DNA of 42,184 bases, taken from IMG/VR virus record IMGVR_UViG_2565956633_000005, positions 1-42,184 of that record, one strand, 5' to 3'. Positions 11,209-39,350 of this stretch are shown one piece after another. The DNA comes from a virus (taxonomy: Duplodnaviria; Heunggongvirae; Uroviricota; Caudoviricetes). How positions within the stretch are numbered: the stretch's first letter is position 1; each line of letters starts with the position of its first letter. Below the pieces are notes generated by a model. The model had not been told where the DNA came from. It ran no database searches and saw nothing but the letters and a program-made list of their open reading frames with translations. The position numbers were made by a program, and so were the translations under genes.

Positions 11209-11212
11209 GTCA

Positions 11213-11593: not shown

Positions 11594-11594
11594 A

Positions 11595-13146: not shown

Positions 13147-13736
13147 TATTTCTCTCCTCTTGTGGAGTTGTAGAGGCCGGTCATTTTACTTACCAGCGCA
13201 GACTTTCCGGTCTCTTTCTGTCCGCTATCCGGATTAAGCCGGACCTGGTGGCTTTCCTGCATACGCTGATCGAGAGAGCGTTTACGGGATGGCTGAGATG
13301 CGGCTGCGGCCGGAGCCGAAGAGGCTAGGACATTAATTGCTGCCGCAGAACTCATCCCGGTATTGAAAGCCAGTGACGCGGCCAGTGAAGGATTCGCAGC
13401 TGCATGCTTACTGCCGAAAATACGGGCGCAGCGTTTACGCTCAGCAGCGCGTGCATTTTTTACCGCCTTACTCTCTTTGCGATCGTCGTCGCCGTCGTCT
13501 TCAGAATCATCATCTTCTGACGCATCCGGATCATCGCAGTCATCTTCAGCATCATCGTCGCGTTCGTCTTCTTCCGCGTCGTCGTCGCGCTCATCATCAT
13601 CGGCATCATCTTCGCGCTCATCCTCTTCCGCGCGACGGGCTTTCGCTTTTTTGGCTTTTTTATCCTCTTCTTCCTCAGAAGCGGAAGGGCCAAGACCAAT
13701 GAGGTGAGCAAAACTAAACGTCTTTTTCTTTGCCAT
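13146..13736 (-). CDS. scaffolding protein with acidic low-complexity repeats
   Basis: ATG at 13734-13736 (MAKKKTFSF...) with AGGAG RBS, right after protease stop; Asp/Glu-rich tract. Confidence 0.55.
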   Translation of the reverse strand: MAKKKTFSFAHLIGLGPSASEEEEDKKAKKAKARRAEEDEREDDADDDERDDDAEEDERDDDAEDDCDDPDASEDDDSEDDGDDDRKESKAVKNARAAERKRCARIFGSKHAAANPSLAASLAFNTGMSSAAAINVLASSAPAAAASQPSRKRSLDQRMQESHQVRLNPDSGQKETGKSALVSKMTGLYNSTRGEK

Positions 13737-13737
13737 T

Positions 13738-14604
13738 TCAGGCTCCTGTTTTTTCAAGTAAGTTTTTGAACGCAGCGTCAGGAGGACACACCTCATCAGC
13801 CAGTCCAATTTCAACGCCATCAGCAGCCATAAAACAGGCGGCCTGGGTACTTTTTATAACCTTTGCGCTAATCCCCCGGTTTCTGGCAACAGTGTTCACA
13901 AACAATTCGCCCATGGTGTTAATGTCCTGCTGGATGGCGGCCAGCGCTTCATCTGACAACTCTCTCAGCGGCGAACCTTCAGCCTTGCGGGATCCATAGG
14001 TGATGATCGTAACTTTAAGACCGTCATCTTTAATCCGCTGCGTCCAGTCAAGGTGCATGGTGATCACACCCACAGAACCCACTCCGCCGGTGCGCGGAAC
14101 AGAAATCCGGTCCGCTGCACTGGCAATGGCATACGCAGCGGAATAAGCGCTTTCCGTCAGAATGGCATGGATAGGCTTTTTCCCCCGGGAGCCGTAAATG
14201 ACATCAACCAGATCGAAGCATCCAGCGACCTCGCCGCCGGGTGAGTCGATATCCAGGCAAATGCCCGAAATGTCGGGATCTTCCATCGCAGTAAGAAACG
14301 CCTGACGAATGCCGTCATACCCTGTCATTCCACTGTACGGACGCAGACTGCCCAGTTTTTGCACCAGCGTTCCGCATATCGGGATGACGGCGACACCCAG
14401 CACATTGTCATAACCCGGATCACTACGGGATTCACGTCCCCGGTTATCGTCATATCCGTACCAGTCATCCTCCATGGCAAGAGAAGATTCGATTTTACTG
14501 ATACCAAATCGGTCCATTACGGATGCCATGATGACTTCGGCTTTACTCGGGTGCAGCGCCAGCGGGGTGTTAAATAATCGCTGGGCCAGATGGGGTAGAT
14601 TCAC
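13738..14604 (-). CDS. head maturation protease, S49/SppA family (lambda gpC-like)
   Basis: N-terminus NLPHLAQRLFNTPLALHP resembles lambda C; probable GTG start overlapping portal stop. Confidence 0.75.
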   Translation of the reverse strand: MNLPHLAQRLFNTPLALHPSKAEVIMASVMDRFGISKIESSLAMEDDWYGYDDNRGRESRSDPGYDNVLGVAVIPICGTLVQKLGSLRPYSGMTGYDGIRQAFLTAMEDPDISGICLDIDSPGGEVAGCFDLVDVIYGSRGKKPIHAILTESAYSAAYAIASAADRISVPRTGGVGSVGVITMHLDWTQRIKDDGLKVTIITYGSRKAEGSPLRELSDEALAAIQQDINTMGELFVNTVARNRGISAKVIKSTQAACFMAADGVEIGLADEVCPPDAAFKNLLEKTGA

Positions 14605-16238
14605 TTTTCCTCCGGATCGGTAATGGTCTGGCTCGCAAACTGGTCAGCCTGTGCCCAGCTCGGAAGCGGTAATCCGCGTTTAAGACATGACTCAATTTCT
14701 CTCTGGCGCTGATCAAGCACTTCTTCCCAGTCTTCACCGACGTTTTCACCCACCTCAATCTCGAGGGTGGAAAGTCCGGCATCCAGACCAAGAATGGCGC
14801 CTTTTTTCTCTGCAACCGGATCCACCCAGCCGCGCCCTGGCCCCATCCAGCGCGCGCGAGAATACGCGGCTCTGGCGTCAACAAAATCAGGTGCGCCTGC
14901 GGGCAGGGGTAAATCCTCATTGTCGTGAACTTCTTCAACAAAGGCGGTGAGAATGGGCTGAGCGAAGCCGGTAGAAAAATCGTCCCGGCGGCGAGTCAGT
15001 GTTTTCCATGCCTCCAGCAACGAGGAGCGTGCAGAACTGTAGTTAACGTCAGACCAGTCCTGGGTGACCTGCTGTGGGGACAACCCTGTTCCTGAAGAAA
15101 AATTACGGAGAACAGCAGATTCGAAGACTTCAAAATTGCTGTAGGGCCGCGCCGCGTTAACCGTCGTGATTTTCTCACCAGGATAAAGAATGGGCATTCG
15201 GGCACCATTCTGAAGTGTCAGACGCCGATCGTTATGGAACTCAACACGCCCGTCCTGATAAGTGCCTAACTCCGACTCGTCATAGGTCTCGCCCAGGGCA
15301 GACTGAACCATCGCAGGGTCATAGGGTGACTCAATGTAAGCGGCGAATATGGCATTAAGAATTGCTGCCTCAAGCTCACTCTGGTCATACTTCACCAGCA
15401 TTTTCAGACGCTGAATAACCGGAGTCAGGATGCCGTTACCGCGGTGCTGCGCGCCACGCTCATGATCAAAATCGTGAACTACATGCGGGCGGCCCCAGTC
15501 AGTTTCACGCGGGATACGCTGCCACGTCATGGTTTTAGCCCCGCTCCACCAGTCACCGATATGGGCCTCCCTGATGTGGTAAGCAACCGGTGCACCGTCC
15601 GCATCAATTTCAACGCCACCACGGACATTTGGCATATCGAAATTCTGCTGAGGATTACTGAGGCGGTCAGGATCGACAATCTGTACCGTGGTGGCGTAAC
15701 GCCCTCTTCCGGGACCAAGCCTGTCAGTTCTGTACTGGAGAATGGCCAGAGCATCCCCGTCAATAAGCTTGTGACGAAATCCCAGGCGTAACATCTGCGA
15801 CACGGTGAGTTTTCGTTCAACATCACAATACCGGCCAGGATCGTTACTCCAGGTCCGCCAGTGCCCGTCCAGTGCTTTTCCGTACTCTTCCGCCCAGGAC
15901 GCATCAAACGCCTTGTTTCCGGTGATCATTCTGAGAACACGGTAATCGGGTTTCATGATGGGGCGGAAGTTGGCACCAACCGCATTATCCAGCAGACGTG
16001 TGACCGCACCGTTTGCCCAGCCGTCATTACGGACCAGATCGCGTGCGCGGGACACGATGCGATCCCGGTAAATGTTAATTTCATTGTCCGGGGACCACAG
16101 CGCGGGTTGCCAGTTCGCCAGTTGATCGCTGAAAGAGTCAGCTGCGTCATAAGGTACGCGGCTCCCCCCCACCAGCATAGAAGGACGCTGCTGTCGCAAC
16201 GGCTGCCCATCAGAGCCCAGTATCTGTACTTTATTCAT
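14601..16238 (-). CDS. portal protein (lambda gpB-like)
   Basis: 545-aa ORF between gpW and protease. Confidence 0.8.
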   Translation of the reverse strand: MNKVQILGSDGQPLRQQRPSMLVGGSRVPYDAADSFSDQLANWQPALWSPDNEINIYRDRIVSRARDLVRNDGWANGAVTRLLDNAVGANFRPIMKPDYRVLRMITGNKAFDASWAEEYGKALDGHWRTWSNDPGRYCDVERKLTVSQMLRLGFRHKLIDGDALAILQYRTDRLGPGRGRYATTVQIVDPDRLSNPQQNFDMPNVRGGVEIDADGAPVAYHIREAHIGDWWSGAKTMTWQRIPRETDWGRPHVVHDFDHERGAQHRGNGILTPVIQRLKMLVKYDQSELEAAILNAIFAAYIESPYDPAMVQSALGETYDESELGTYQDGRVEFHNDRRLTLQNGARMPILYPGEKITTVNAARPYSNFEVFESAVLRNFSSGTGLSPQQVTQDWSDVNYSSARSSLLEAWKTLTRRRDDFSTGFAQPILTAFVEEVHDNEDLPLPAGAPDFVDARAAYSRARWMGPGRGWVDPVAEKKGAILGLDAGLSTLEIEVGENVGEDWEEVLDQRQREIESCLKRGLPLPSWAQADQFASQTITDPEEK

Positions 16239-16501
16239 CAGAATCTAAACCTCGCTGGTTTCCGGGGGCGAGAGATAATCCCCAGTTGCGCCTGCAGAAG
16301 TTGAATCAGGGCCAGCAGATCAGCCAGGGTGCTTTGCTGATAGGACACTGATCGCGTCCCGTCTCCCTGCGTATAGGAAAACGAAACACCGTGGCTCCCG
16401 GTTGCTAAATCAATGTACGCCTGCTGAGCTTTCGCAAGCGCATCCCTGAGCTGATCGTCAGTCATTGCGCCGGCAAGCAGGCTGGTGTTCCGGTTGAACA
16501 T
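16238..16501 (-). CDS. head-tail joining protein gpW-like
   Basis: 87 aa; C-terminal ...RPRKPARFRF resembles lambda W ...RRRGPAGFYV; sits between terminase and portal. Confidence 0.65.
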   Translation of the reverse strand: MFNRNTSLLAGAMTDDQLRDALAKAQQAYIDLATGSHGVSFSYTQGDGTRSVSYQQSTLADLLALIQLLQAQLGIISRPRKPARFRF

Positions 16502-16509
16502 GATTTTCC

Positions 16510-18633
16510 TTATTTCGGCAGGAGTTGCGATATTCGCTTACGTTTGACCGGCGCTGGTTCTTCAATAACCGCACCCGGCAGCTCGTAATTGATTTTTTCT
16601 TCCTGTCCAACTGGCGCTGGCAGGAACTTATCCGGATCGGCTTCGAGGTTGGCGGCCCGGACGTTGAGTTTTAACCCCATATGTTTGAGACCGCACAGCG
16701 CGGCATAGCTGTAAACGAGGCAGTCAAGCGCTTCGTTAGCTCGTCCTGGTATTGCTTCCCAGATACTGTACCGCTGCCCGGAAATGACTTTGTAAACCAG
16801 TCGCTCCGCCAGCAGCTGATTGAAGTACCCGAGATCGCGATCGTCAGGAAAATGCATATAACCCGCAGCGGCGGCGCCAGGTTTGGGTGGCTCAAGATGC
16901 AGGCGACCGCGTATCACGTCTTTCGCTGAGTTAACCCCCAGAATGACAGGGCGGAAACTGGCTTTGCTTTTCGATGATGGTCGTTTGGTCGGCCAGACAG
17001 GATTGCGTTTGCCTCCCTGTGCAGACTCCCCCTTAATTGCCCAGACACGACGGCCAAGACGCTCTTTGGCGAATTCGTATACCTTCTGCGTATGGTGGCC
17101 GCCGGAGTCCATGCACGTTGCCATGATATTCAGGCCGCGCCCGTCACCACGTCGCCAGATCTGTTTCAGGTATGCATCCAGTCGCTTCCAGGGTTCTTCC
17201 GTCTCAAGGTCACCATAAATAACGTCATGCGCGACCGACCACGATTCTTCATCTCTCCCCCAGCCGGTGATCGTAATTTCGAAGCGATCGTCCTGGGTAT
17301 CAACTCCAGCTGTTAACAATGCCACCCCGTCCGGAACGACGGCCGGAAATATTTCCCGGCGCGCCAGCAGAACATCAACAGGGAGCTGTTTCCCATGATT
17401 AGGTCGGTGCGGAAGCCCCATCTGGGTATTCCACCACGCCTGTTCCTTATCCGGATCGCCCTTCGCATCGATATATTTTTTCGCAATATCCGACGGCTTA
17501 TCTTTTTGCCAGGGGCTGAAAAGCTTGGATGCCTGGTACCCCGCGTGGTGGTTATCGACTGCCTCCTTTCCACAGGAGGGGCAGATTGCGCGATAGACCG
17601 CATGCCGTTCCGACTCTGACCATTGCCAGACCTTTTCAACGCTGCCCTCGTCTGCCGCCCGCCAGGCAAGGTCATAATCCATCAGCGGTGAGTGCCGCTC
17701 CCCGCAGCACTCAAATGGGCGCGTCTGATGCCATCGAATAGTGTGCAGAGCTCTGAGGCGCTGTCCTTCGGACCAGCCACTACCACAGCATTCGCAATAG
17801 AGCATCGCCGATTTAGTCAGGTGTTTATCTCCCTCTTTCGGCCACTGAACGTGTTTGAAAAAGTCGGGGAACTGGCGGTGGCCACAGTGCGGGCAAACCA
17901 CAGATGCCCGGCGCTGATCGGAGTCGGCGTAGCTGTCAGCAATGCGGCTCTCATCCTCCACCGTCGGCGAACAGGCGCGTACAGACAGCCAGGTCAGGCC
18001 AAATGTCGCTGTACGCTCTTCGGCCAGCGCAATTGGATCGCCTTCGCGGGTTATCGGGTACTTGTCCACTTCATCCGCCAGCAGGACACGAATCGGACGA
18101 CGCGCAAGGTTATCAGGGCTACCAGCACCCGCCAGCGCCAGAAATCCGCCAGTGAATGCCTTGTAAAGAATGGTTTCTTTCGAGCTTTTCTGTTTCGAAT
18201 CACCGATGATTTTACGCAGTACCGGCGTCACCCTTACCAGCGGGCTAATACGCTCTTTCGAAAACTGTTCAGCGGCTTCTTCTTTCGGCTGCAGCAGCAG
18301 TATCGGACAAGGATCGAGGTGGGCAAAATAGCCAAAAAGGTTTTCCAGCAGTGCTGTCTTCATCAACTGGGTACAGCACATTACAGTGATGATATGAACC
18401 CCGGACTCCGTCGCGGCAAGCATCGGTCCGCGGGCAATTTCTACCGTCGATGTTTCCCAGTTTCCCGAAGTGCTCCCAGCCTCTTTTGCCAGCTTACGAT
18501 AGTCATCTGCCCACTGCGGCACACTGATACGCGGCGGGGGTGTCCAGCCTTTGCGGACGCTTAATTCAAGACGCTCAATCTTCTGCCGGGTTAAACTCTG
18601 GCTCTCCGAGGACTGAGATGTGTTTGTGGACAT
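16510..18633 (-). CDS. terL: terminase large subunit (lambda gpA-like)
   Basis: About 707 aa; track start is TTG, ATG at 18631-18633 chosen. Confidence 0.85.
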   Translation of the reverse strand: MSTNTSQSSESQSLTRQKIERLELSVRKGWTPPPRISVPQWADDYRKLAKEAGSTSGNWETSTVEIARGPMLAATESGVHIITVMCCTQLMKTALLENLFGYFAHLDPCPILLLQPKEEAAEQFSKERISPLVRVTPVLRKIIGDSKQKSSKETILYKAFTGGFLALAGAGSPDNLARRPIRVLLADEVDKYPITREGDPIALAEERTATFGLTWLSVRACSPTVEDESRIADSYADSDQRRASVVCPHCGHRQFPDFFKHVQWPKEGDKHLTKSAMLYCECCGSGWSEGQRLRALHTIRWHQTRPFECCGERHSPLMDYDLAWRAADEGSVEKVWQWSESERHAVYRAICPSCGKEAVDNHHAGYQASKLFSPWQKDKPSDIAKKYIDAKGDPDKEQAWWNTQMGLPHRPNHGKQLPVDVLLARREIFPAVVPDGVALLTAGVDTQDDRFEITITGWGRDEESWSVAHDVIYGDLETEEPWKRLDAYLKQIWRRGDGRGLNIMATCMDSGGHHTQKVYEFAKERLGRRVWAIKGESAQGGKRNPVWPTKRPSSKSKASFRPVILGVNSAKDVIRGRLHLEPPKPGAAAAGYMHFPDDRDLGYFNQLLAERLVYKVISGQRYSIWEAIPGRANEALDCLVYSYAALCGLKHMGLKLNVRAANLEADPDKFLPAPVGQEEKINYELPGAVIEEPAPVKRKRISQLLPK

Positions 18634-19144
18634 GTTCAATCAGCACCTCTGTCATCCTGTCCGCCGGTACATCCAGATCAGCAGCCATTAGCGGCGCCAC
18701 CCTGGACGGCCAGTTAAGCCAGGCATCACGCTGTTGGCGAAAGGCGTTGAATAAAACCTCCTCGGCTGCTGTCAGCTCAATAAGCTGGCCGCTGTCTTTT
18801 TCATACTGCAGCTTTGCCTGCAGGGCCATGTAATTCTCGCGGATACGTCCCGCTTCCTCTCTCGAAAGATCTGCCCCTTCAGTGAGCATTATCTGGCGGA
18901 CAGTTTTATTGATTTCATCACCGTCATCATCGTTATCGCTAACGACGGGAGTTTTCTTTTTCTTCGCGTTCGAGGCGCGCGGGTCTTTGCCATCGCGGTT
19001 TTTCTTCAATGCCGCATCGCTGGCCTCTACGTCAATCAGGTCTCCGTCCATCACAATGAAGCGCCCGGCTTTAATCCACCGGCCAATTGTTTTGCGATCC
19101 ACACCTGAATGTTGTGCGTACTGACTCTGGTTCATCGTGGTCAT
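18575..19144 (-). CDS. terS: terminase small subunit (lambda Nu1-like)
   Basis: 189 aa, N-terminal HTH; overlaps terL start as in lambda. Confidence 0.75.
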   Translation of the reverse strand: MTTMNQSQYAQHSGVDRKTIGRWIKAGRFIVMDGDLIDVEASDAALKKNRDGKDPRASNAKKKKTPVVSDNDDDGDEINKTVRQIMLTEGADLSREEAGRIRENYMALQAKLQYEKDSGQLIELTAAEEVLFNAFRQQRDAWLNWPSRVAPLMAADLDVPADRMTEVLIEHVHKHISVLGEPEFNPAED

Positions 19145-19292
19145 GGGACATCACCTGGGACATTTTCTGGGGTGGGACATTCGCCTGGGACATTTTTGCC
19201 ATGTCCCACCAGAATGTCCCACTGGAATAAACTGGAATAGCCAGAGCTGGCGAGGTGTCCGTAATGATCGCCAGAGGTGGGACATGGGACAC
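19145..19292. repeat. cluster of GGGACAT heptamer repeats, candidate cosB terminase-binding sites
   Basis: GGGACAT at 19145, 19157, 19174, 19187, 19279; inverted ATGTCCC at 19201, 19214; GGGACAC at 19286; all just upstream of terS. Confidence 0.5.
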
Positions 19293-19434
19293 AAATCTGA
19301 AAGTTGTAGCTAGGAAAACACCGCGGCGCGCAATGCCCGTACCTTACAAAAGTCTCAGGAAGGACCCATTTTTTTAATGGCTTCGACCATTCGCTCCGAC
19401 TATGATTATTCCTATTCAATACAAGGAGAATGTA

Positions 19435-19938
19435 ATGGGTAACAATATAATCAAAATAACTTTCGTAGCCGCAGTGCTGGCATCACCAATTGCTCATGCC
19501 CAGTGGGTAACTAATACTGAAGATGACCTTTTCTCTGGTGGTAAGAAAGCAATGATGCTTGGCGAGGTTTCATCCGACAATGGCGCCATTGTGTTTGACT
19601 GCACTAAAGAAAAGCTATCGGCGGCATACGTTGAAATGGATAAAAGCACCGAATCACTATCAGAGGTACCAATGGACCTGATAATGAAGGTCGACGGGAA
19701 TACCGCAGTGAAGCTCGATGCTACCCTTTCAAGACGTAATGTTCAGAGCCTCCAGATTCAATCGGATGACGCGGACCAACTAAAAACAGTGCTTAAGCAG
19801 CTTCAGGGGGCGAAATCCAAAGTGTTAGTTGGTGTGCAAACAAAGGATGGCGGAAACCAGCATTCCATGTCAGCCAATGTTTCTGGATCGACAACTGCAG
19901 TAAACAGCTTCATAAAAGCTTGCGAAATTAACTTATAA
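19435..19938 (+). CDS. secreted protein of unknown function (moron, opposite strand)
   Basis: ATG at 19435 with AAGGAG RBS; signal peptide MGNNIIKITFVAAVLASPIAHA; lies between lysis genes and cos. Confidence 0.55.
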   Translation: MGNNIIKITFVAAVLASPIAHAQWVTNTEDDLFSGGKKAMMLGEVSSDNGAIVFDCTKEKLSAAYVEMDKSTESLSEVPMDLIMKVDGNTAVKLDATLSRRNVQSLQIQSDDADQLKTVLKQLQGAKSKVLVGVQTKDGGNQHSMSANVSGSTTAVNSFIKACEINL

Positions 19939-19948
19939 GTTACTGCTT

Positions 19949-20587
19949 TTATTTTGCCGTCCTGATGGCTTCTGCTATCGCCTGATTTAAAGCAGACGGT
20001 AGCAGTGCGTTCGCCATGGTACGGGCCCTATCCATATACCCCAGCACTGGAGTCACAGGTAGCGCATCACCAAACCGGATCAAAAGCTTTGGAGAACGCT
20101 GTTTACGTTTCGGTCTTCGCGTCCCATTAGCGGAGCGCTTGGCCCGTCGCTTCTTAGCTTTCATCGGTTTCTTACGCTGCCAGACAGCGTTAACGCCATC
20201 CACCTCACCTACGAATACATTTTCCTTTGCTTTGAGCTGAGAGAGCTTATTACGCGGCAGGTTGCCGTATTTATTAAGCTTTATGTCTTTCGGGTTAAGC
20301 AAAGCACTACCATTAAGCTTGTGCTCTCCGCCGAACTCGAAGGGTTCAAGGTAACCAGCAGCAGTATCACGAACAAACACCTTCGCACGAAGGCTGTTTT
20401 TCCTGGCACCAACTGACCCAACCGATTTAACTGTAAAAGGTGTTGGATTATCCAGATTCCGCTCAAATGCTGTTTTTTGGGCCGCTTCTATCTGGCGAAC
20501 CACTTTAGTCATAGCCTGGGCAGTCGCAAACGGTATTTGCTTCTGCAGCTGCTTTAGCTGCCGGGATAAATCCTTAAGCGTTGACAT
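19949..20587 (-). CDS. hypothetical protein with basic Lys/Arg-rich tract
   Basis: ATG at 20585-20587 with GGAGG RBS (MSTLKDLSRQ...). Confidence 0.45.
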   Translation of the reverse strand: MSTLKDLSRQLKQLQKQIPFATAQAMTKVVRQIEAAQKTAFERNLDNPTPFTVKSVGSVGARKNSLRAKVFVRDTAAGYLEPFEFGGEHKLNGSALLNPKDIKLNKYGNLPRNKLSQLKAKENVFVGEVDGVNAVWQRKKPMKAKKRRAKRSANGTRRPKRKQRSPKLLIRFGDALPVTPVLGYMDRARTMANALLPSALNQAIAEAIRTAK

Positions 20588-21855: not shown

Positions 21856-22262
21856 AGCCTCACCTCCGATTTTTCGGATGGCGCTGTGTGTGTTTGAAAA
21901 GGGTCAGGCTTCACGGGCTGGATTTATCAACAAAGCACGTAGCGGATGATTCCCGTGAGCCTGAAATTGATGAATATGTCTGAAATAACTAGACCATTAG
22001 TAAAACAACTCGATAAATGTGGTTAAATGAGACTACGTTCTCACAACTTAATTAGTACCAATGATTATCAAGCCCTGCCCCTACTGCGGAAAGTTAATTA
22101 ACCCAGAATCACTTGTGTGTAGCCACTGCCGGATAGTGAATCCTTTTGTGAAGGCCAGCAGAAGAGAAAAAGCGAAGAATGTATTAGTAATCGCTCTCGT
22201 TGCTGCTTTTTTAATTTGGATGATTCTCTGAGTTGCCAGTTTTCAATGAAGATAATGCGGGC

Positions 22263-22289
22263 AAAAAAAGCCTGCTCGGACGAACAGGC
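22263..22289 (-). terminator. intrinsic terminator candidate
   Basis: Minus-strand hairpin GCCTG-N10-CAGGC followed by U7 (plus A-run 22263-22269). Confidence 0.45.
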
Positions 22290-22706
22290 ATGAAAAATAA
22301 CAATACCGTCAAGGAGGTGGCGCCGGGTGCCTCCCGGTGGAACAGCCCCAGCCGACTAGTTCCGCGCAAACAAACCTGGACAAAAAAGTTTGACTGGACG
22401 CCCCGCCGCATAGGGGGATTCACCACGAACCAAAAGATAAAATCATCCGGTGACCGGGGCAATATCTAACCGGAACTTTTCAGAATCACTTATTGTTTCC
22501 TGGAGAGTACATGAGCGTTGGTGAATTCACGTGATGCTTTTGGATGAGCGCTGAACCCAAAGGTCAGTATTTTCACACAGCAATTTTGCAAAAAGCAGCG
22601 CCCATTCAAAACCAGGTCGCTTTCCAGTCACTCCGGGGAACCCATCATCGCAGACTGGAAAGCTTTTACTGGAGCGGGCAAAGGAATCGAACCTCTGACG
22701 CGCAGC

Positions 22707-23132
22707 TTATTTCCAGGTTTCGCCATTTAAGGCTGAAAGCACTGTTTGATGTGTTACACCAAACATTCTCCCTAGCCCTCTGGCTCCATAAACCTTATGT
22801 CGTGGAATGTAGTTTTCTCTGATGAACTGGACGCTGTCCATTGTTAGCTTGCTCATACCATTCAGCTCACCAGCTACTAAGTAGCTAAGGTCAAATTTGG
22901 TTTTCTGAATGTGGCATGCAGAACATAGTAGTTGGCACTTTTCAACCTCAGCATAAAACACCGAATCTGAGTGATAGTGCATCTCGCTTACATTTGCTGA
23001 TTTGGTGGAAGGGTCTATGCGGTCAAACTGAAGCGAATATTCGGATCCGCAACTCGCGCAACGACCACCCAACTTTTCCACGGCCTTAGCAAGCCTAGCC
23101 CTTCGATTAAGATAGTAATCTTTGCTCGGCAT
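22707..23132 (-). CDS. HNH endonuclease
   Basis: 141 aa; Cys pairs CASCGS...H...CSACH; GAGGTG RBS. Confidence 0.65.
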   Translation of the reverse strand: MPSKDYYLNRRARLAKAVEKLGGRCASCGSEYSLQFDRIDPSTKSANVSEMHYHSDSVFYAEVEKCQLLCSACHIQKTKFDLSYLVAGELNGMSKLTMDSVQFIRENYIPRHKVYGARGLGRMFGVTHQTVLSALNGETWK

Positions 23133-23167
23133 TTACCACCTCTGCCACTGAACTAGACCGGCGAATT

Positions 23168-23242
23168 TGGCGGGACAGGAAGGATTCGAACCTTCGACCA
23201 TTCGGTTAACAGCCGAACGCACAACCGCTGTGCTTCTGACCC
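23168..23242 (-). tRNA. tRNA-Asn (anticodon GTT)
   Basis: Hand-folded cloverleaf: T arm GAAGG-TTCGAAT-CCTTC, anticodon loop CTGTTAA, G73 discriminator, encoded CCA; deviations A8 and a U-U mismatch in the acceptor stem. Confidence 0.6.
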
Positions 23243-23249
23243 TGAAATG

Positions 23250-23275
23250 AAAAAGCCCCGCACGATGGCGAGGCT
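23250..23275 (-). terminator. hairpin plus U5 between late promoter candidate and tRNA
   Basis: 8-bp stem with one mismatch, then UUUUU on minus-strand transcript. Confidence 0.3.
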
Positions 23276-23328
23276 CTTAATTCTTTGTCGACCTACGAAG
23301 CTATGGCGACGATATCATATTTACATGA

Positions 23329-23357
23329 AATATATGCTATTTAATTGACTTTTGCAA
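23329..23357 (-). promoter_or_regulatory. candidate late promoter (pR'-like)
   Basis: Minus strand TTGCAA-17 nt-TATATT overlapping the 3' end of the Q-like gene. Confidence 0.3.
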
Positions 23358-24030
23358 TACCATGCCGCGAAAAAGTCGTTTTTTGTTGTGAACGTGATCG
23401 AGAAACCGTCAGCAAAGCTTGTCTGTCCAATCCTTGGAAAATTTCCCCCATAGCCCGCCAGTAGCCAGAATAGTTATGGCTCCAGTTATCGGGTTTAATT
23501 CCGATCATAGAAGCTGGCGCATAACGTAAGCAGCCTTCCCTGCCTGAAATATCTGCTTTTTCATTCTGAGCCGCCAGCCAGATGAGCTGACGCAGGCGAT
23601 CTACCGTTTTCTTTGCAATGCGCACACCTGCAAATTGTTGGTTGAATTGCTCCCACGCCCAGCGGACAATCGTCTCCTGGAGCTCCCAGCAGATATTGTC
23701 GCTGTAGGTCCAGAGCAACCATGCTCTCTGATGGTCTTCCAGAGACAGGACAGCGCGGCGCCATGATGCGGTGCCGAACTCTACCGGACTCACCAGCGCG
23801 ATTGACGAGCCCTTGGCGCGTGACTGACTGCCGCTCATCGGCGGGCCGTCGGGGTTAACCATGCGCTTTTTCTGCGCGTCATAGACTTTCTTCCGCCCCC
23901 GACTCCGCGCCGTCGCGGTGAATTGCGCGTTCTCGGCGAAAGCTACCAGCTGCCCTTTCGTCGCCCCGCTGAGGTCTGCGGTCGCCACAATGAGCTGCTG
24001 ACGTACGTATTCCAGTTGCTGACTGTTCAT
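23341..24030 (-). CDS. putative late antiterminator Q-like protein
   Basis: 229-aa ORF in the Q position between nin genes and late leader; family assignment tentative. Confidence 0.5.
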   Translation of the reverse strand: MNSQQLEYVRQQLIVATADLSGATKGQLVAFAENAQFTATARSRGRKKVYDAQKKRMVNPDGPPMSGSQSRAKGSSIALVSPVEFGTASWRRAVLSLEDHQRAWLLWTYSDNICWELQETIVRWAWEQFNQQFAGVRIAKKTVDRLRQLIWLAAQNEKADISGREGCLRYAPASMIGIKPDNWSHNYSGYWRAMGEIFQGLDRQALLTVSRSRSQQKTTFSRHGIAKVN

Positions 24031-28105: not shown

Positions 28106-28443
28106 GCTCTCACCCCGTATACGCTTAAAATTCTTTTCATCGCCGCGCTGTTGCGGCACTCCTGGCAGATCACGTTTGTGTCCGTCCGCTGAATTAACTT
28201 CGACTTACCCTGCTTCATGCCAGGTATCGTGTCAGGGGCGAAGCGCATTCCGTAGCTGGTCAGGCTGTAAAGGCGCTGGCCGTATTTTCCTTCGCAGCGG
28301 ATCAGGCCGTCTGCCAGCAGCGTGCTCACCGTTCCGGATATCTTTTTGGTGTCCATGCCGATAAGCCCTGCCAGTTTGGCGTTGTTCAACCCTGGGTTGT
28401 TGCGCAGGGCTGCCAGCACCTGCTCACGGATTGTTATGTTCAT
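28102..28443 (-). CDS. ren: Ren-like protein
   Basis: ATG at 28441-28443; C-terminal ...ICQECRNSAAMKRILSVYGVRA resembles lambda Ren; directly downstream of P. Confidence 0.65.
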   Translation of the reverse strand: MNITIREQVLAALRNNPGLNNAKLAGLIGMDTKKISGTVSTLLADGLIRCEGKYGQRLYSLTSYGMRFAPDTIPGMKQGKSKLIQRTDTNVICQECRNSAAMKRILSVYGVRA

Positions 28444-28444
28444 G

Positions 28445-29134
28445 TCACACCATCCCGTTCGACTTGTTGCGGTTGTACTTGGCCAGCAGCAGCTGGATCG
28501 GCGTCGGCCCTTGCTCGGCAGCTGGTGCGGCAATAGCCCGGCGTACCGGCGGCACTGGCTTACCCTCGGTGACGCGCCTTTCCCACATGTCCAGCAGATC
28601 GCCTGCCTCGCGTGCCAGTTCACCATGCGTTAACTGGCGCTCGGTGCTGCGGTGGCGCAATTCTACGCAAATGTGGTACATGACCGGCTGCGACCATGGA
28701 AATTGCTCGCTGGAGATGAATTCGAACGAGCGGTTACGCCAGTCCCAGTATTCGGCGATCACCTGGTCAACGTTGACGCCCAGCGCGCCGCCGCTCTGCT
28801 TGCACCAGGCGACGAACTGGCCCGGCGACGGCAGGAATGGGCGCTCCTGGCGGCGGGCAATGCGCATGCCGGCATCGACCTGAGCCATGGTGTGGATCCC
28901 GTTCTCCTGAAACGCCAGCAGCCACTGACGGCGGAATTCGTTCAGGTCTTCCTGGGTGCGGAAGTTCGCCATGCTGGCCGGGAACGCGGCGCGCAGCTCG
29001 TTGAACAGCTTGTTGAATACCTGCGCCACCTGCTCGACCGGCGCGCACTCCTGGTACTGCTCTGGCAGGTTATGGGCCATGCGGCTCATCTGCTCGCGGT
29101 CGTGGTTACGCATCTGCTCTGCAAGAGATTTCAT
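28445..29134 (-). CDS. P: replication protein P (helicase loader)
   Basis: N-terminus MKSLAEQMRNHDREQMSRMAHNLPEQY resembles lambda P. Confidence 0.8.
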   Translation of the reverse strand: MKSLAEQMRNHDREQMSRMAHNLPEQYQECAPVEQVAQVFNKLFNELRAAFPASMANFRTQEDLNEFRRQWLLAFQENGIHTMAQVDAGMRIARRQERPFLPSPGQFVAWCKQSGGALGVNVDQVIAEYWDWRNRSFEFISSEQFPWSQPVMYHICVELRHRSTERQLTHGELAREAGDLLDMWERRVTEGKPVPPVRRAIAAPAAEQGPTPIQLLLAKYNRNKSNGMV

Positions 29135-30039
29135 CGGATCACCCCATAGGCCCAGTCAGTGTTGTTGAAGTCCAGATCTGGCTTGACAGCGCGCTGCTCA
29201 CCTCCGGCGTTACGCTGCATTGTCAGCTTGTCCCACTGCTTACGCAGGCTTTCGGGACTCAGGATGTTGGTCTGCCAGAAGTGGTGTTTGCTAGCCCAGT
29301 CATACAGCGCGCAGATGTCCTGGTGCGACCGGTTGTCTATCTGGCGCATCAGGCGAACAGTGTTAGACCAGGAGGTCATGTCCGGGGCTTTGCAGGTTGG
29401 GTTAATCAGCTTCACCCTGGAGGAAATCCACTTAGCTGTCTCGAGGTCTTCAGCAGAGCCCCACTTCGCACCGGATGGTGTGTAGACCGCAGCTTCAGGA
29501 TGAGTTGATAAAAATTTCTTCAGACGTGCGTCAGAGGATTCGTCAGAATTCTCGGACGAAGATCTTTTAATACTGTTCTTGTTCTTGTATTGGGTGTCTA
29601 CCGTTTTCGGGAAGGTTATTCCTGATTTCGGGAAGGATTTTCCCGTTTTCGGGAATTTTCTTCCCGTTTCCGGTTTGTCTAAAATCCATGCTGAAAGGTC
29701 AGTGTTTACACCGACGATTTTCATCATGCCCTGCTTCTGTGAAAAGATGATTTTGCGTTCTGCGAGAGACTTAAGCGCGTCCGATACATGCGTATCGCTC
29801 AGGCCCGTAAGCTCGGCAATAACCGTATTTGTCACGCGGTCCTGTTTCTTGTTCCAGCCGTAGGTAAGCCAGATCACCGCCTCAAAACATTGCCATTCCC
29901 GGCCTGACAGTCTCAGGCGAGGCTTAAGCTGTTGGATCTCGTTAGCGACCTTGGTATACCCGTTCGACAGGTCGGCCATACGACCTCCCGGTTGTTCGGT
30001 TTTATTTGGGAAATTGATTATTTCAGCGGTGTTTGACAT
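29131..30039 (-). CDS. O: replication initiator protein O
   Basis: Track start is GTG; ATG at 30037-30039 (MSNTAEIINF...) resembles lambda O; iterons inside. Confidence 0.8.
   Translation of the reverse strand: MSNTAEIINFPNKTEQPGGRMADLSNGYTKVANEIQQLKPRLRLSGREWQCFEAVIWLTYGWNKKQDRVTNTVIAELTGLSDTHVSDALKSLAERKIIFSQKQGMMKIVGVNTDLSAWILDKPETGRKFPKTGKSFPKSGITFPKTVDTQYKNKNSIKRSSSENSDESSDARLKKFLSTHPEAAVYTPSGAKWGSAEDLETAKWISSRVKLINPTCKAPDMTSWSNTVRLMRQIDNRSHQDICALYDWASKHHFWQTNILSPESLRKQWDKLTMQRNAGGEQRAVKPDLDFNNTDWAYGVIR
29599..29673. repeat. ori iterons inside the O gene
   Basis: About four ~21-bp spaced copies of TCCCG-TTTT-CGGGAA-like element (perfect palindrome at 29641-29655). Confidence 0.55.
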
Positions 30040-30124
30040 ACTTACTCCCGTTACTTGGCGTAACACAGTGTGATAAGGGCCTTTGAAGTTACCGCTTCAA
30101 GGGCTTTTTCTTTTCTTGTGCCTC

Positions 30125-30670
30125 TCATATAACCCCCAGCATCGATGTAACCATCGTCATCAGCGGTCCTACCTGCTCCGGCATGAGGCGGAACAGCGAC
30201 GCTATACCCTCGCTTACCTCTTTGAGCTTCTGATGCTCTGGAGCGTCCAGCAGCACGGCCTGTTTAGCCTCGGCACACTCTTTCATCGCAGAGGCGATCA
30301 GCGACATCGTGTCGTTCTGCGGCGCCAGACGGTTTCGGTACTCCAGCGGCAGGACCGACATGATTGCCGGGGCCAGCTGGCGAATGTTGTTGGCGGCGTA
30401 TTCGGTATCGCCATCAATCCATCGAAACACTTTCTGCATCTGGCGGTGCGAGTCAGTCTGGATATCCAGACCGGTTCCGCCGGACGCCCGCCACTCTTCC
30501 ACGATCAGCGCGGCGACAAATTCACGACTGCGGCAATCAGCTGCCCAGGCGCGTACTGCTGCGCGGATCCCATCGATATTTAACGCCGAGGATTCTCGCT
30601 CCCGGCGATTCTGGTAAATCATCGCCGCTGGCGAAAATTTGTTACCTTGTTGATACGCAAGTGAATGCAT
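30125..30670 (-). CDS. hypothetical regulator in the cII position (possibly YdaT-like)
   Basis: 181-aa ORF between cro-like gene and O; assignment uncertain. Confidence 0.4.
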   Translation of the reverse strand: MHSLAYQQGNKFSPAAMIYQNRRERESSALNIDGIRAAVRAWAADCRSREFVAALIVEEWRASGGTGLDIQTDSHRQMQKVFRWIDGDTEYAANNIRQLAPAIMSVLPLEYRNRLAPQNDTMSLIASAMKECAEAKQAVLLDAPEHQKLKEVSEGIASLFRLMPEQVGPLMTMVTSMLGVI

Positions 30671-30715: not shown

Positions 30716-30946
30716 TTAATTTTTAATTCGGTCAGGGTTTGCAGCCTGTAGTAGCCACTCTGCCGTAAACTGCCCTTTTGATGCGTCAGCCAAAAGCTGT
30801 GAATAGTTGGTTTTCTCTGTGTACTCAGTGCGAGGCAACGCCGCGTTCTTTACCCACTTGTGAATAGCAACATTCGACAGACCACATAGGCGTGCCGCTG
30901 CGGTTTGTCCGCCTACAGCTTCGATTGCAAATTGCATTGGGTTCAT
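30716..30946 (-). CDS. cro: Cro-like HTH repressor
   Basis: 76 aa; HTH TAAARLCGLSNVAIHKWV; divergent from cI. Confidence 0.7.
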   Translation of the reverse strand: MNPMQFAIEAVGGQTAAARLCGLSNVAIHKWVKNAALPRTEYTEKTNYSQLLADASKGQFTAEWLLQAANPDRIKN

Positions 30947-31030
30947 AGTGTTTTCCGTTAACTATATTAACTACGAGTTAAGGTTATATCTTAACTGACA
31001 GTTATGTCAACTCTAATTGATAATTAACAC
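30947..31030. promoter_or_regulatory. OR-like operator region with divergent pR/pRM candidates
   Basis: 21-bp palindrome AGTTAAG-N7-CTTAACT (30976-30996); minus-strand pR TTGACA-16-TATAAC; plus-strand pRM CTGACA-16-GATAAT ending 8 nt before cI ATG. Confidence 0.5.
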
Positions 31031-32064: not shown

Positions 32065-32544
32065 ATGGATAAAATTAATTACCCACCCCTGTTTGAGCCA
32101 GGGCTCCATGACATGGATGAAGCTGGATTAAAATCGTATTGTGTCGATTGCTTTCCTTCATCATCCAGGCGAGGCATGCTATACTGTAATTTTATACAGC
32201 TACTCGAATCTATTCGAGAATTATCTGCTCAATATGGCTGTTTTACAGAAATATGGGTTGATGGTTCATACACCACGTCTAAACCAGAGCCTGATGATAT
32301 TGATATTTTGTTGGTATGTGACTATAGCAATATAAACTCAATACCTGTCATGCTTCGGGGCCGCGTCGATAATTTGCTTGACCGAAACTACATCAAACAA
32401 AACTACAAAATTGATGTCCTACTACTCATGAAGAATTTAGATGACCCTAACTATGATTATGAGTACTGGCGTAGCTACTGGCGCGGTTGGTTTGGTTTTG
32501 ATCGCAGTGAAAACCCGAAAGGGTTAGTGAGGATTTTTTTATGA
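32065..32544 (+). CDS. minimal nucleotidyltransferase-like protein (Pol-beta superfamily signature)
   Basis: 159 aa; AAGG RBS; EIWVDGSYTTSKPEPDDIDILLV fits hG[GS]x9-13Dx[DE]; later KIDVLLL acidic strand; AT-rich. Confidence 0.55.
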   Translation: MDKINYPPLFEPGLHDMDEAGLKSYCVDCFPSSSRRGMLYCNFIQLLESIRELSAQYGCFTEIWVDGSYTTSKPEPDDIDILLVCDYSNINSIPVMLRGRVDNLLDRNYIKQNYKIDVLLLMKNLDDPNYDYEYWRSYWRGWFGFDRSENPKGLVRIFL

Positions 32545-33473
32545 ATGATAAATCAATGTTTAAAAATTGCGATAAACGCATTGATTTCATTCAAAAAGAA
32601 GTCGATGCAATGAAGCAAAACAAAACCAGGTCCTTTGCTGACATGCTTCTTTATCGCTCCATGGATTCTCATCTGAGCGATTTGAAGGCCGAAAAATTAA
32701 AGCAAGATAGTCGGCACCCACTTATCGATTTTTTTGAGCTGCGGCTGAAAGGCTCTGAGGTTGACTTTGGCTCTATTCCTTTAGAGCTGCTTGGGGCTAT
32801 TTCAACAAATCTTGCAGCGCTAATACAAAGAGCAACACACAAAATTGCCTCAGGCAAGGACTCAAAAAAAGTTCCCTACGACGTGAAAAGCTCCTTAAAC
32901 CTCAGGCTGGCTGATTTATCCCCTGGGTCTACAAAATTGGGCGTCACCTTCTCTACAGGAATAGCAGAATTAGTAGAAACAGTACCCAGCAAGGCTGTAA
33001 AAGGCATATTCGATTTGTTGTTAAGCGATGACGACAACAACTTCATGAATCACGTCGCTGAAATTGGATACAATTCCACTGTAAGCCTTAAGAGAATCGT
33101 AGAGGAATGCGATAAACACAACTTAACATTTGATGCAAGTTGGACCGGTCCATTTAGTAATGGCACCAAGGTGGCAACTATTGACTCCAATAAAATTAAG
33201 TACTTGGTGAGTAGACTTACATCAACCATTTCATCCCCTCCCATTACTGAAACGGTTACAGGCGAACTGGTCGTTCTATCCAAATATGGGAAGCTGGAGC
33301 TTGATGTTGGTGGTGAACATTTAAAGGCTTCCTATCCGATTGAAATGCTAGATTTAATACAAAAAAAACACAAGGTCGGACAGATTGTTTCTCTTTTAGT
33401 GGAGACTACTGAGATTCACAATGATCGCATAGGTCTGTACCGTAAAAACCATCTTGTTAAATCGGTTCTTTAA
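32541..33473 (+). CDS. hypothetical protein, partner of NTase-like gene
   Basis: 310 aa; ATGA overlap with upstream gene; GTGAGGA RBS; no recognisable motif. Confidence 0.55.
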   Translation: MNDKSMFKNCDKRIDFIQKEVDAMKQNKTRSFADMLLYRSMDSHLSDLKAEKLKQDSRHPLIDFFELRLKGSEVDFGSIPLELLGAISTNLAALIQRATHKIASGKDSKKVPYDVKSSLNLRLADLSPGSTKLGVTFSTGIAELVETVPSKAVKGIFDLLLSDDDNNFMNHVAEIGYNSTVSLKRIVEECDKHNLTFDASWTGPFSNGTKVATIDSNKIKYLVSRLTSTISSPPITETVTGELVVLSKYGKLELDVGGEHLKASYPIEMLDLIQKKHKVGQIVSLLVETTEIHNDRIGLYRKNHLVKSVL

Positions 33474-35820: not shown

Positions 35821-35960
35821 GCGAAAGCCCACCGAAGTGGGCCCGCCATGTCCGGCCTCACCGACCAAAGTTACACCGGAAACAACATTAAAACCAAAGT
35901 TAACCCAATGGGCGCTATCAATGGTCCGGGGATTCTAACACCCAAAAATGAGGATCTCAC

Positions 35961-38900
35961 ATGGAATTCTTTAATGTGGTTAAAGCCACTCAGAAATCCG
36001 GAAAGCAAGATGCAGTGGTCTGGTTCACTGCTAAAACCGAGGCTCGCGCCAATCTGATGCTGGATGTTGCGCTGGAAGATGCAGGTATCGAAACAGGTCG
36101 GGGTAAGGACTACGCCAAACCGATTCGCACTGATTTCCCAGTTGTCGACGGCCTGCCGAAAGAAGGTGAAGTTGATTTTACCTGGTGTGATCGCTACGAG
36201 CTTCAGGACGATGGGCGCACCTGGCTGCCAAAAGCCGCTGGTGTGTCTACTGGTTCCGTTGACGCCCCCTACACACCTACTCCGACCGTAATCGTTGAAG
36301 ATGCGACTGCGTCCGAAATTGTCCCGGTTGAAAACCGTACTCCAGCGGTCCGCTTTGCCGTCCATCTGATGAACGATAAATACCAAACCCACGTCACTAA
36401 AGAGCAGCAGTTGGCTGCCAGCGAAATGTCACTGGATGAAGGCAATACATATCTCCATAGCCTGCTTGTGGCAAGGAACGATGTGCCCGCGACCGCCAAA
36501 CTCAGCCTGAATGCTGAGTGGAAAATGATTCGGGCGGTTAAGGACATTTTCACACCCGACGAAGAGCACGAACCAAGATTGATCGCTGCATTCATGTCTG
36601 ACTGGGTGAACACCGATGCCGGTGACCGCAATCAACTGGTAGAAGACTGGCGCAGTGGTAAGTTGCAGTTGCTCAAAACTGAAACCAGCAACGCTGCTGA
36701 CGTTACAACGGGTCAAGATCTCACTGTTGAGGACGGTATCCAGACCGACGAGAACGGCCGGGCAGAAGGTGGCGTCGTTGATGGTGAAGTCGATACCGAA
36801 GAGCAATCCCAGCAGACACAGCAACCGAACCTGATCGTTGTTGCCACCCTGCCATTCCGCCAGCGCGTACTGGCTCAGTTCATCGGTGATGGTGAATATC
36901 TCTATCACATCGACGCAGGGCAGAAAAATGAGATTGTCCGCCTTGAGATGGACACCGATGACGCGTACGTCCAGAACCTGCTGCTGGCAGCTGAGAATGT
37001 GGAAGCATTCAAAAAAGCCATTGAGCACGATATTCATAAAGTCGTGAATGCCGTTAAGAAAGTCTTCCCTGTCGATGGAAAAATCCCTGAACTCGCAACC
37101 TTAATCCAGTTTTTGAAATTGTGGTTCGCTACAGATCACATCGACCGCGGTATCCTCGTTCGCGAATGGGCCGCCGGTAATCGCATCAGTAGTGTGCAGC
37201 GTACTGATTCCGGAACCAATGCCAACGGCGGTTACGTCACTGACCGTGGACCTGATACATACCATACCCTTGACACTCTCGATTTAGAGATTGCATGTGC
37301 CCTTCTGCCTATGGACTTCAACCACTTCGAGATCCCGGGCAGCATTCTTCGTCGCGCTAAAGAAATCGTGACCAAAAAAGAAGAACCATGGAAATCATGG
37401 AGCAACATCCTGCGCAATCAGCCAGGCGTTCTGGGTGTTAACCGCACGGCTATTTTTAACCTGGTACGTATCGCACCGGAAAATATTCATTTAACTCCTG
37501 TCGCTCACCTGGAATTTGTTAACCAGACCATGACAGCCGCGTTCAATTCCGCGGTCGAGTTATTGCCGTTGCATGAGGCTGAACCCGCAGCACAGGAAAT
37601 TCCCCAACCTGAAGGTAAGGAGTCTCCGCGCAAATCCTTCTGCACTCACGAAGAGAACCTGCAACGCGTGCGTGAAGAAGGAGCACGCCGCCGCGCAGAG
37701 GAAGCGGCAGCACAACCGCAGAAAGTCGAACAAGAACTGGTTAAAAATGTCGGCAACGGAATATTCGACGTTACGGCTTTGCTGCAGAACTCAGCAACTC
37801 ATGGCACGAAAAAGGCTACGGAGACCACCAGCAATGTGCAGGTTCAAGAAACTGTCAGTGATGAAAAACAAGCTGGTGATGAAGTACAGCCAGGCGAAAG
37901 CAGTCTGGAGTCTGGTGAAGAGTCAGATACCAGCCAGAAGGACGATGTAAACCAGAATACGGATTCTGTCGCCAAAAATAGCGATTCTGTAAGCCAAACC
38001 GAACCAGTTGCAGCACAAACCGAGCCAGAAGCGCAATCTGACGAACCGGCTGTTGTTTATCCCGCTTATTTCGAGCCAGGCCGCTATGAAGGGCTGCCAA
38101 ACGAGGTTTACCACGCCGCCAACGGCATCAGCTCAACCCAGGTGAAAGATGCGCGCGTTTCGCTGATGTACTTCAATGCGCGCCACGTAGAGAAAACCAT
38201 CGTCAAAGAGCGCTCAGCGGTGCTGGACATGGGCAACTTGGTGCATGCGCTGGCGTTGCAGCCTGAACTACTGGACGCAGAATTCAGCGTTGAACCGGTG
38301 ATCCCTGAAGGCGCATTCACAACGGCCGCGACCCTGCGCGCCTTTATCGATGAGCACAATGCCAGCCTGCCGGCGCTGCTGTCTGCCGACGACATCAAGG
38401 TGTTACTGGAAGAGTACAACGCCACCCTGCCGCCGCAGGTTCCGCTTGGCGCTAACCTGGAAGAAACGGCACAGAACTATATGGCGCTGCCAGCTGACTT
38501 CCAGCGTATTGATGGTGACCAGAAGCAGACGGCGACGGCAATGAAGGCATGCATTAAAGAGTACAACGCCACCCTGCCGCCGCCGGTTAAAACCAGCGGC
38601 AGCCGTGACGCGCTGCTGGAGCAGTTGGCAATCATCAACCCTGACCTTGTGGCTCAGGAAGCACAGAAACCGGCACCACTGAAAGTGTCCGGTACCAAAG
38701 CAGACATGATCCAGGCCGTGAAGGCAGTCAAACCAGATGCCGTATTTGCCGACGAACTGCTGGATGCCTGGCGCGATAACCCGGAAGGAAAAGTGCTGGT
38801 CACCCGCCAGCAGCTGAGCACCGCGCTGAATATTCAAAAAGCGCTTCTGGCACACCCGACCGCCGGCATGCTGCTGACCCACCCTAGCCGAGCCGTTGAG

Positions 38901-39350
38901 GTGAGCTACTTTGGTTTTGACGAGGAGACGGGCTTGGAAGTTCGTGTGCGCCCTGACCTTGAGATCGACCTGGATGGCGTGCGTATAGGTGCAGACCTGA
39001 AAACCATCAGCATGTGGAATGTTAAGCAGGAAAGCCTGCGCGCCAGGCTACACCGGGAAATTATTGAACGTGATTATCACCTGAGCGCGGCTATGTACTG
39101 CGAAACCGCAGCGCTGGATCAGTTCTTCTGGATTTTCGTCAACAAAGACGAGAACTACCACTGGATCGCCATCATCGAGGCATCCGCTGAACTACTGGAG
39201 CTGGGTATGCTCGAGTACCGCAAAGCGATGCGCAATATCGCAACCGGATTCGACACAGGTGAATGGCCAGCGCCAATCACTGCTGACTACACCGACGAAC
39301 TGAACGACTTCGACCTGCGCCGCCTTGAAGCGCTGCGTACTCAGGCATAA
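35961..39350 (+). CDS. recE: large RecE-like exonuclease (putative exodeoxyribonuclease VIII-type)
   Basis: 1129-aa ORF with TGAGGA RBS directly upstream of RecT-like gene; nuclease assignment by synteny, tentative. Confidence 0.5.
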   Translation: MEFFNVVKATQKSGKQDAVVWFTAKTEARANLMLDVALEDAGIETGRGKDYAKPIRTDFPVVDGLPKEGEVDFTWCDRYELQDDGRTWLPKAAGVSTGSVDAPYTPTPTVIVEDATASEIVPVENRTPAVRFAVHLMNDKYQTHVTKEQQLAASEMSLDEGNTYLHSLLVARNDVPATAKLSLNAEWKMIRAVKDIFTPDEEHEPRLIAAFMSDWVNTDAGDRNQLVEDWRSGKLQLLKTETSNAADVTTGQDLTVEDGIQTDENGRAEGGVVDGEVDTEEQSQQTQQPNLIVVATLPFRQRVLAQFIGDGEYLYHIDAGQKNEIVRLEMDTDDAYVQNLLLAAENVEAFKKAIEHDIHKVVNAVKKVFPVDGKIPELATLIQFLKLWFATDHIDRGILVREWAAGNRISSVQRTDSGTNANGGYVTDRGPDTYHTLDTLDLEIACALLPMDFNHFEIPGSILRRAKEIVTKKEEPWKSWSNILRNQPGVLGVNRTAIFNLVRIAPENIHLTPVAHLEFVNQTMTAAFNSAVELLPLHEAEPAAQEIPQPEGKESPRKSFCTHEENLQRVREEGARRRAEEAAAQPQKVEQELVKNVGNGIFDVTALLQNSATHGTKKATETTSNVQVQETVSDEKQAGDEVQPGESSLESGEESDTSQKDDVNQNTDSVAKNSDSVSQTEPVAAQTEPEAQSDEPAVVYPAYFEPGRYEGLPNEVYHAANGISSTQVKDARVSLMYFNARHVEKTIVKERSAVLDMGNLVHALALQPELLDAEFSVEPVIPEGAFTTAATLRAFIDEHNASLPALLSADDIKVLLEEYNATLPPQVPLGANLEETAQNYMALPADFQRIDGDQKQTATAMKACIKEYNATLPPPVKTSGSRDALLEQLAIINPDLVAQEAQKPAPLKVSGTKADMIQAVKAVKPDAVFADELLDAWRDNPEGKVLVTRQQLSTALNIQKALLAHPTAGMLLTHPSRAVEVSYFGFDEETGLEVRVRPDLEIDLDGVRIGADLKTISMWNVKQESLRARLHREIIERDYHLSAAMYCETAALDQFFWIFVNKDENYHWIAIIEASAELLELGMLEYRKAMRNIATGFDTGEWPAPITADYTDELNDFDLRRLEALRTQA

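Follow-up and report, generated by a model that had tools for sequence, protein, structure and literature searches.

The initiator gene O of this phage-like element very probably contains a phi80-type version of the lambdoid theta-replication origin, located in the region that encodes the linker between the two domains of the O protein. An origin of this type is already known: it was described in print as early as 1979, and GenBank carries an annotation of it. In the window, i.e., the whole stretch of 42,184 nucleotides that was analysed, all sequence-level features of a lambdoid origin were found. These are the position within the gene, the iteron array, the AT-rich stretch, the right arm, the P gene with its operon, and the covariation of the iterons with the N-terminal domain of O. 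Below, we describe the origin and the module that contains it, consider what else the repeats could be, and compare the origin with those of lambda and other replicons.

Architecture of the origin within O

[quoted passage not shown] Direct reading of the sequence revealed an array of four partly palindromic units of 15–16 bp at 29599–29675, with a strict spacing of 21/21/21 bp. A preliminary description of this DNA had proposed about four tandem copies of a partially palindromic element, spaced by about 21 bp. Its copy number, spacing and symmetry all hold, as does the start of the array at 29599, whereas the end lies at 29675 instead of 29673. The repeat unit was also rightly assigned to the O gene, but its strand needs correction. 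As O is encoded on the minus strand, the unit in the sense of the gene reads TTCCCGAAAACGGGAA, which is the iteron consensus.

The four iterons occupy codons 122–147 of the 302-aa O gene and have a dyad symmetry of 6+4+6. Iteron 2 is a perfect 6+4+6 palindrome that matches the pattern TTCCCGN4CGGGAA without mismatches, and iteron 3 matches it with one mismatch. The outer iterons are half-palindromes in which the inward-facing half-site alone is well preserved, namely the right half-site of iteron 1 and the left half-site of iteron 4, the unit that adjoins the AT-rich region. Tandem Repeats Finder reported a 21-bp period at 29601–29673 (3.5 copies, 78% matches), and a repeat search found three in-register copies at 21-bp spacing together with nested inverted repeats. 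With up to two mismatches allowed, TTCCCGN4CGGGAA had seven matches in the 42-kb window where 1.97 were expected, and none of 100 shuffles reached seven. Three of the seven matches fall inside the array, at exactly 21-bp spacing. The iteron-like sites in the window outside the array are four scattered two-mismatch matches, a number consistent with chance. On the minus strand the array is translated as GRKFPKT-GKSFPKS-GITFPKT, a 7-aa period that equals 21 bp, and the FPK(T/S)G repeat that had been noticed to coincide with the array is real. Phasing of A-tracts was considered as evidence for intrinsic bending. For a period of about 10–11 bp the array ranks 119th of 8,417 100-bp windows, which is suggestive only and was set aside.

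Directly beyond iteron 4, reading in the O sense, the duplex is less stable than anywhere else in the O gene. The A+T content is 65% over 29556–29598 and peaks at 73% over 29561–29590, compared with 48% for the window. Nearest-neighbour energies place both the least stable 30-mer (29562–29591) and the least stable 40-mer (29561–29600) of the gene in this stretch (z = 2.75 against the whole window). The stretch is strand-asymmetric, with A at 20 of its 43 bases on the sense strand. The moderately AT-rich stretch that had been suspected beside the repeats is thus borne out. The right arm that follows has the same base as lambda 39148–39178 at 29 of its 31 positions. An earlier delimitation of the origin, from 29540, stands overall, while the conserved right arm extends slightly beyond it, to about 29530. 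A GATC (Dam/SeqA) site occurs at 29561–29564, where the AT-rich stretch meets the right palindrome (AAAAGATCTTCG). This site is kept in the Klebsiella phage ST16-OXA48phi5.2; lambda is without GATC and has AAAAGATTATTCG.

Table 1. Features of the origin, of its operon and of the small RNA cluster in the window. Iterons are numbered in the order of the O sense.
Feature	Position	Strand	Description and evidence	Counterpart in JX871397
pR-like promoter, between cI and cro	30983..31010	-	TTGACA, 16 nt, TATAAC; direct sequence read	
cro-like gene, first in the rightward-type operon that reads through the origin	30716..30946	-	ORF; Pfam YdaS_toxin 1.4e-6, below curated cut-off	
cII-like gene, upstream of O in the same operon	30125..30670	-	ORF; phi80 cII annotation; Pfam YdaT_toxin 3e-27	
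M3 RNA (lambda oop RNA homologue), antisense to the O leader and cII-O junction	30050..30109	+	Coordinates transferred from JX871397 and X13065 annotation	
O-like initiator gene, phi80 gene 15 type, 302 aa	29131..30039	-	ORF; Pfam Phage_rep_O; phi80 identity	
Iteron 1	29661-29675		O sense AACCGGAAACGGGAA; + strand TTCCCGTTTCCGGTT	protein_bind gp15, 36663-36677
Iteron 2	29640-29655		O sense TTCCCGAAAACGGGAA; + strand TTCCCGTTTTCGGGAA	gp15 site, 36683-36698
Iteron 3	29619-29634		O sense TTCCCGAAATCAGGAA; + strand TTCCTGATTTCGGGAA	gp15 site, 36704-36719
Iteron 4	29599-29613		O sense TTCCCGAAAACGGTA; + strand TACCGTTTTCGGGAA	gp15 site, 36725-36739
AT-rich stretch, A-rich on the O-sense strand, presumed DNA unwinding element	29561..29598		A+T content, duplex stability, lambda colinearity	
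Conserved right arm of the origin	29530..29560		TTCGTC-N10-GACGAA imperfect palindrome around an EcoRI site, then TCCTCTGAC	
P-like gene, phi80 gene 14 type, 229 aa, presumed DnaB helicase loader	28445..29134	-	Pfam Phage_lambda_P 2e-49	
isrJ-family sRNA	23252-23325	-	Small RNA cluster	
tRNA-Asn (GTT)	23168-23242	-	Small RNA cluster	
STnc100-family sRNA	22259-22451	-	Small RNA cluster	

The ORF listed for the gene runs from a GTG at 30066 to 29131 (311 aa), and the start equivalent to that of phi80 is the ATG at 30039, which is preceded by GGGAG. The Pfam family Phage_rep_O matches aa 29–127 of the 311-aa ORF (6e-25), and alignment with lambda O places the iterons in the linker between the N- and C-terminal domains. 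In a sequence search of the PDB with the O-type domain, the only hit was a marginal one (E = 0.009), to a metal-dependent regulator in its winged-helix region, which gives a weak hint that the N-terminal domain may be a winged helix. Rfam identified no RNA family in the origin region.

A phi80-type replication module in a mosaic element

The 936-bp stretch at 29131–30066 shares 99.9% identity with phi80 gene 15 plus leader, both in X13065, a deposit of the early region, and in JX871397, and 99.7% with phages HK225 and mEp237. The sole mismatch to phi80, at 30058, is upstream of the ATG, so the O coding sequence and its protein are identical to gene 15 and gp15. In JX871397, four features annotated as 'protein_bind gp15' (36663–36739) map base for base onto the four iterons. 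These GenBank sites may have been assigned by analogy with lambda and not from footprints. The first comparison of the phi80 origin sequence with those of lambda and phage 82 was by Grosschedl and Hobom (Nature 1979; cited in PMC3349717 and PMC5043065).

The similarity to phi80 extends to the four iterons, the AT-rich stretch, the right palindrome, the O-P arrangement and the M3/oop RNA, whereas the immunity region, the nin region and all structural genes differ. The block at 28403–30376 is 97.5% identical to phi80, and its 49 mismatches are mostly in the P-like gene. Genome-wide, the window is not colinear with JX871397, as the matches amount to about 7 kb in eight blocks. The element thus carries a phi80-type replication module but is not phi80.

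The gene order is pR-cro-cII-(M3/oop)-O-P, and a P-family gene directly downstream of O in an operon led by pR, cro and cII is what is found at lambdoid origins. The start of the P-like gene overlaps the stop of O (ATGA). The M3 RNA has a terminator-like stem at 30075–30108, followed by a T run. The pR-like promoter overlaps two TTAACT-N3-AGTTAA operator-like palindromes beside the divergent cI gene, and was missed by a consensus scan because its -10 hexamer ends in C. Transcriptional activation of the origin presumably comes from this promoter. The cII-like and cro-like ORFs match the Pfam families YdaT_toxin and YdaS_toxin. As the phi80 record annotates their homologues as CII and Cro-like, the 'toxin' family names look like misnomers for phage regulators.

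The O-P module was present in 186 of 5,426 complete E. coli genomes, 120 of which contained at least 80% of the O-P query. The early region of the element is closest to HK225, mEp237 and phi80, with blocks that are 94–98% identical, whereas a search of 50,697 phage records with the structural half (1–20000) gave next to no nucleotide matches, the best being 79% over 1.1 kb, to the major capsid gene of a Serratia phage. An early region of phi80/HK225 type joined to a structural half without close kin in that collection marks the element as a strongly mosaic lambdoid prophage or phage.

This mosaicism raises the question of whether the origin is phi80-type by descent but inactive, either as a relic in a defective prophage or as part of a mismatched mosaic. 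We consider this unlikely and give it a slight chance. It would agree with the replication module, int and a few other blocks being all that matches phi80, and with a structural half so far removed from recorded phages. Against it, O and P are full-length intact ORFs, the O protein equals phi80 gp15 and the iterons are unchanged. A pR-like promoter is present, and the ORFs of cro, cII, Q, int and the recombination genes are likewise intact. Moreover, many E. coli genomes carry this module with at least 99% identity, as do HK225 and mEp237, which are isolated phages.

Three further observations concern other parts of the window. Just downstream of cI and on its strand, in the slot of lambda rexAB and phi80 40A, there is a two-gene cassette (32065–33473, plus strand) with ORFs of 159 aa (Pfam DUF6932, 1.7e-24) and 310 aa (no Pfam match) whose stop and start overlap. 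In PADLOC, the cassette matches the candidate defence system PDC-M63 in both of its components (A 4e-41, B 7.5e-45), and is likely a prophage-encoded anti-phage moron that would be expressed in the lysogen. A cluster of small RNA genes (22259–23325, minus strand; Table 1) is located beside the Q antiterminator gene (23341–24030), and the strongest A-tract phasing signal in the window is at 23306–23435. Finally, an Rfam match to the isrB family (35822–35919, minus strand) at the start of a large RecE-like gene region scored 38.2 bits against a gathering score of 35, and may be due to chance.

Folding potential, silent sites and natural variants

An array of palindromes could also act as a nucleic-acid hairpin, either as an mRNA structure that tunes the translation or stability of O, or as an antisense intrinsic terminator on the plus strand. 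We regard such a function as very improbable. A 101-nt stretch does fold far better than its shuffles on both strands (z = -4.8 and z = -5.6), and a consensus scan calls iteron 2 (29640–29655, plus strand) with a T run terminator-like. However, strong folding is automatic here, because palindromes repeated at even spacing add up to one large palindrome. In 25 distinct sequences, the long hairpin showed no compensatory change at any of its 24 pairs, and where positions vary, pairing is lost, e.g., in 9–11 of the 25 sequences at pairs 47–57, 29–75 and 33–71. Covariation was no better than in shuffled data. A model of local hairpins yielded one double change, with 187–306 of 500 shuffles equally good, and the outer units are unable to form a local stem. 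Given the absent covariation and the pair-breaking changes, we reject an RNA or single-stranded DNA hairpin as the primary function. The candidate antisense terminator is a 6-bp stem in one of four equally spaced units and was rejected as a trivial consequence of the palindrome.

The variation among natural O genes bears directly on the reading of the array as an origin. From 80 related IMG/VR loci and the phages PHB10 and Meifeng, we obtained 60 distinct O genes, down to 69% nucleotide identity. In the N-terminal domain (codons 1–117), the pairwise diversity was 0.203 at silent sites (same amino acid) and 0.040 for amino acids. In the origin (codons 123–168), these values were 0.039 and 0.149, and in the C-terminal part (codons 175–302) they were 0.229 and 0.261. 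Silent diversity is thus about five-fold lower in the origin than in the N-terminal domain (Mann–Whitney p = 1.7e-9 on the 60 O genes, a value that overstates their independence, given the close relationship of many of them). The safer figures are those from pairwise Fisher tests with four diverged relatives, where p ranged from 0.008 to 9e-6. The gene-wide minimum of silent diversity in a 46-codon window begins at codon 123, the first iteron codon, and silent-site variation is almost nil in the AT-rich stretch among the 60 variants. Within the array, the column diversity was lowest in the 6-bp arms (0.041), intermediate in the central 4 nt (0.152) and highest in the 5-nt spacers (0.309), which is the pattern that would be expected for the binding sites of a dimer. 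This shows that purifying selection at the DNA level is centred on the iteron arms and the AT-rich stretch.

The least probable reading is that the repeats are a feature of the protein alone, a duplicated flexible heptad linker (G-x-x-F-P-K-T/S) whose DNA periodicity is a by-product without a role in cis: the 21-bp period does equal seven codons, the repeat is seen in the protein and the region is an interdomain linker in the lambda O alignment, but the silent-site result leads us to reject it, as silent sites are depressed where amino acids change more, substitutions in relatives often alter F, K, T or S while the palindromic arms stay, and protein-level constraint would not yield units that are DNA palindromes. 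As replacement changes exceed silent ones, it appears that the DNA sites, and not the function of the protein, dictate which amino acids make up the O linker.

One natural variant differs in iteron number. In L061 (IMGVR_UViG_3300048929_000128), an exact 42-bp (2 × 21) deletion leaves two iterons beside the AT-rich stretch, and the O gene, at 855 nt, stays in frame. Unequal exchange between iterons would produce such a loss. The deletion fits the sufficiency of the two proximal iterons that is reported for lambda in vitro, as cited in PMC7466680, and judging by its sequence this variant may represent a minimal two-iteron origin.

Other relatives differ in iteron type. Those with a phi80-type N-terminal domain (PHB10, Meifeng and the IMG/VR loci) keep the TTCCCG..CGGGAA arms, whereas in lambda and the Klebsiella phage both the N-terminal domain and the repeats are of other types. 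The iteron type thus goes with the type of the O N-terminal domain, as expected if this domain reads the iterons. The Klebsiella phage ST16-OXA48phi5.2 has the AT-rich/palindrome arm and the C-terminal half of O in common with the element. Its Phage_rep_O N-terminal domain is divergent, and unrelated CCGCACATGAAG repeats, to which the right arm is likewise adjoined, occupy the same position. This points to a recombination joint, with the O N-terminal domain and the iterons as one unit, and the right arm, the O C-terminal domain and P as another. The O gene of the Klebsiella phage (locus L007, 1361–1472) contains about seven copies of (C/G)CGCACATGA(A/T)G, partly at 12-bp spacing. These repeats are translated as AHEAAHEAAH and are joined to an AT-rich/EcoRI-palindrome arm of the phi80/lambda kind.

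Comparison with other origins and proposed initiation

The order of four iterons, AT-rich stretch and palindrome is colinear with the annotated lambda ori (NC_001416 39034–39160, with iterons ITN1–4 at 39034–39118), which has the same position inside O, a gene of the same family. Both origins have four inverted-repeat iterons with an A-tract centre and a downstream A-rich unwinding stretch, and both have the P gene downstream and the pR-cro-cII operon upstream. The lambda-like architecture inside O that had been proposed is supported by the phi80 identity, the lambda colinearity, the O and P families and the DNA-level selection. The two origins differ in several respects. The lambda iteron, ATCCCTCAAAACGAGGGA, has 18 bp compared with 16 bp for the unit described here, and is spaced by 20/24/23 bp instead of a strict 21 bp. 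The AT-rich stretch of lambda is 79% A+T, that of the element is weaker, and the outer units are degenerate only in the latter. At the protein level, lambda O has 39% aa identity, with the N-terminal domain more divergent, and lambda P has 47%. From the genetics of lambda/phi80 hybrids, origin specificity is not expected to be interchangeable, and we expect the same for the element and lambda because their iterons and O N-terminal domains differ.

The origins of the Stx phages 933W and P27 share the lambdoid architecture and the dependence on O and P (PMC7466680), but have six iterons of the lambda type instead of four of a different type. The iteron origins of plasmids (F, R6K, pPS10 and RK2) likewise consist of helically phased initiator sites beside an AT-rich unwinding element (PMC5043065). 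However, plasmid iterons are direct repeats that are bound by Rep monomers and are located outside the rep coding sequence, unlike the palindromes described here, which would serve dimers and are translated within the initiator.

The initiation mechanism of lambda is summarised in PMC5043065 and PMC7466680, and by homology the phi80-type origin may work as follows. Dimers of the O N-terminal DNA-binding domain would occupy the four palindromic iterons, giving a nucleoprotein complex in which the DNA is bent (the O-some). As the iterons are exactly two helical turns apart, they are on one face of the DNA. Supercoiling, together with transcription from the upstream pR-like promoter, would then open the A-rich stretch of low stability at 29561–29598. 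The O C-terminal domain would recruit host DnaB bound to the P-like protein (gene 14 type), and host chaperones would free DnaB, so that bidirectional theta replication could begin. The window as a whole is mosaic and not phi80, so that firing of the origin in its own genomic context is an inference.

There is also a small chance that the phi80-type array builds an initiator complex with a geometry unlike that of lambda, in which the two inner perfect sites might nucleate binding and the outer half-sites might fill cooperatively. The strict 21-bp register, the half-palindromic outer sites and the weak AT-rich stretch suggest this possibility. If it is true, the two-iteron variant L061 would be a fully functional minimal origin.

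With the phi80-type origin already known, our analysis adds only two mildly new items, a quantified silent-site signature and a natural variant with two iterons. For annotation, the result settles where the mosaic prophage-like element has its replication origin, and with it the replicon type (rep-phi80). The depression of silent-site diversity is a clean computational signature, and it could be used to locate origins inside the initiator genes of uncharacterised phages.
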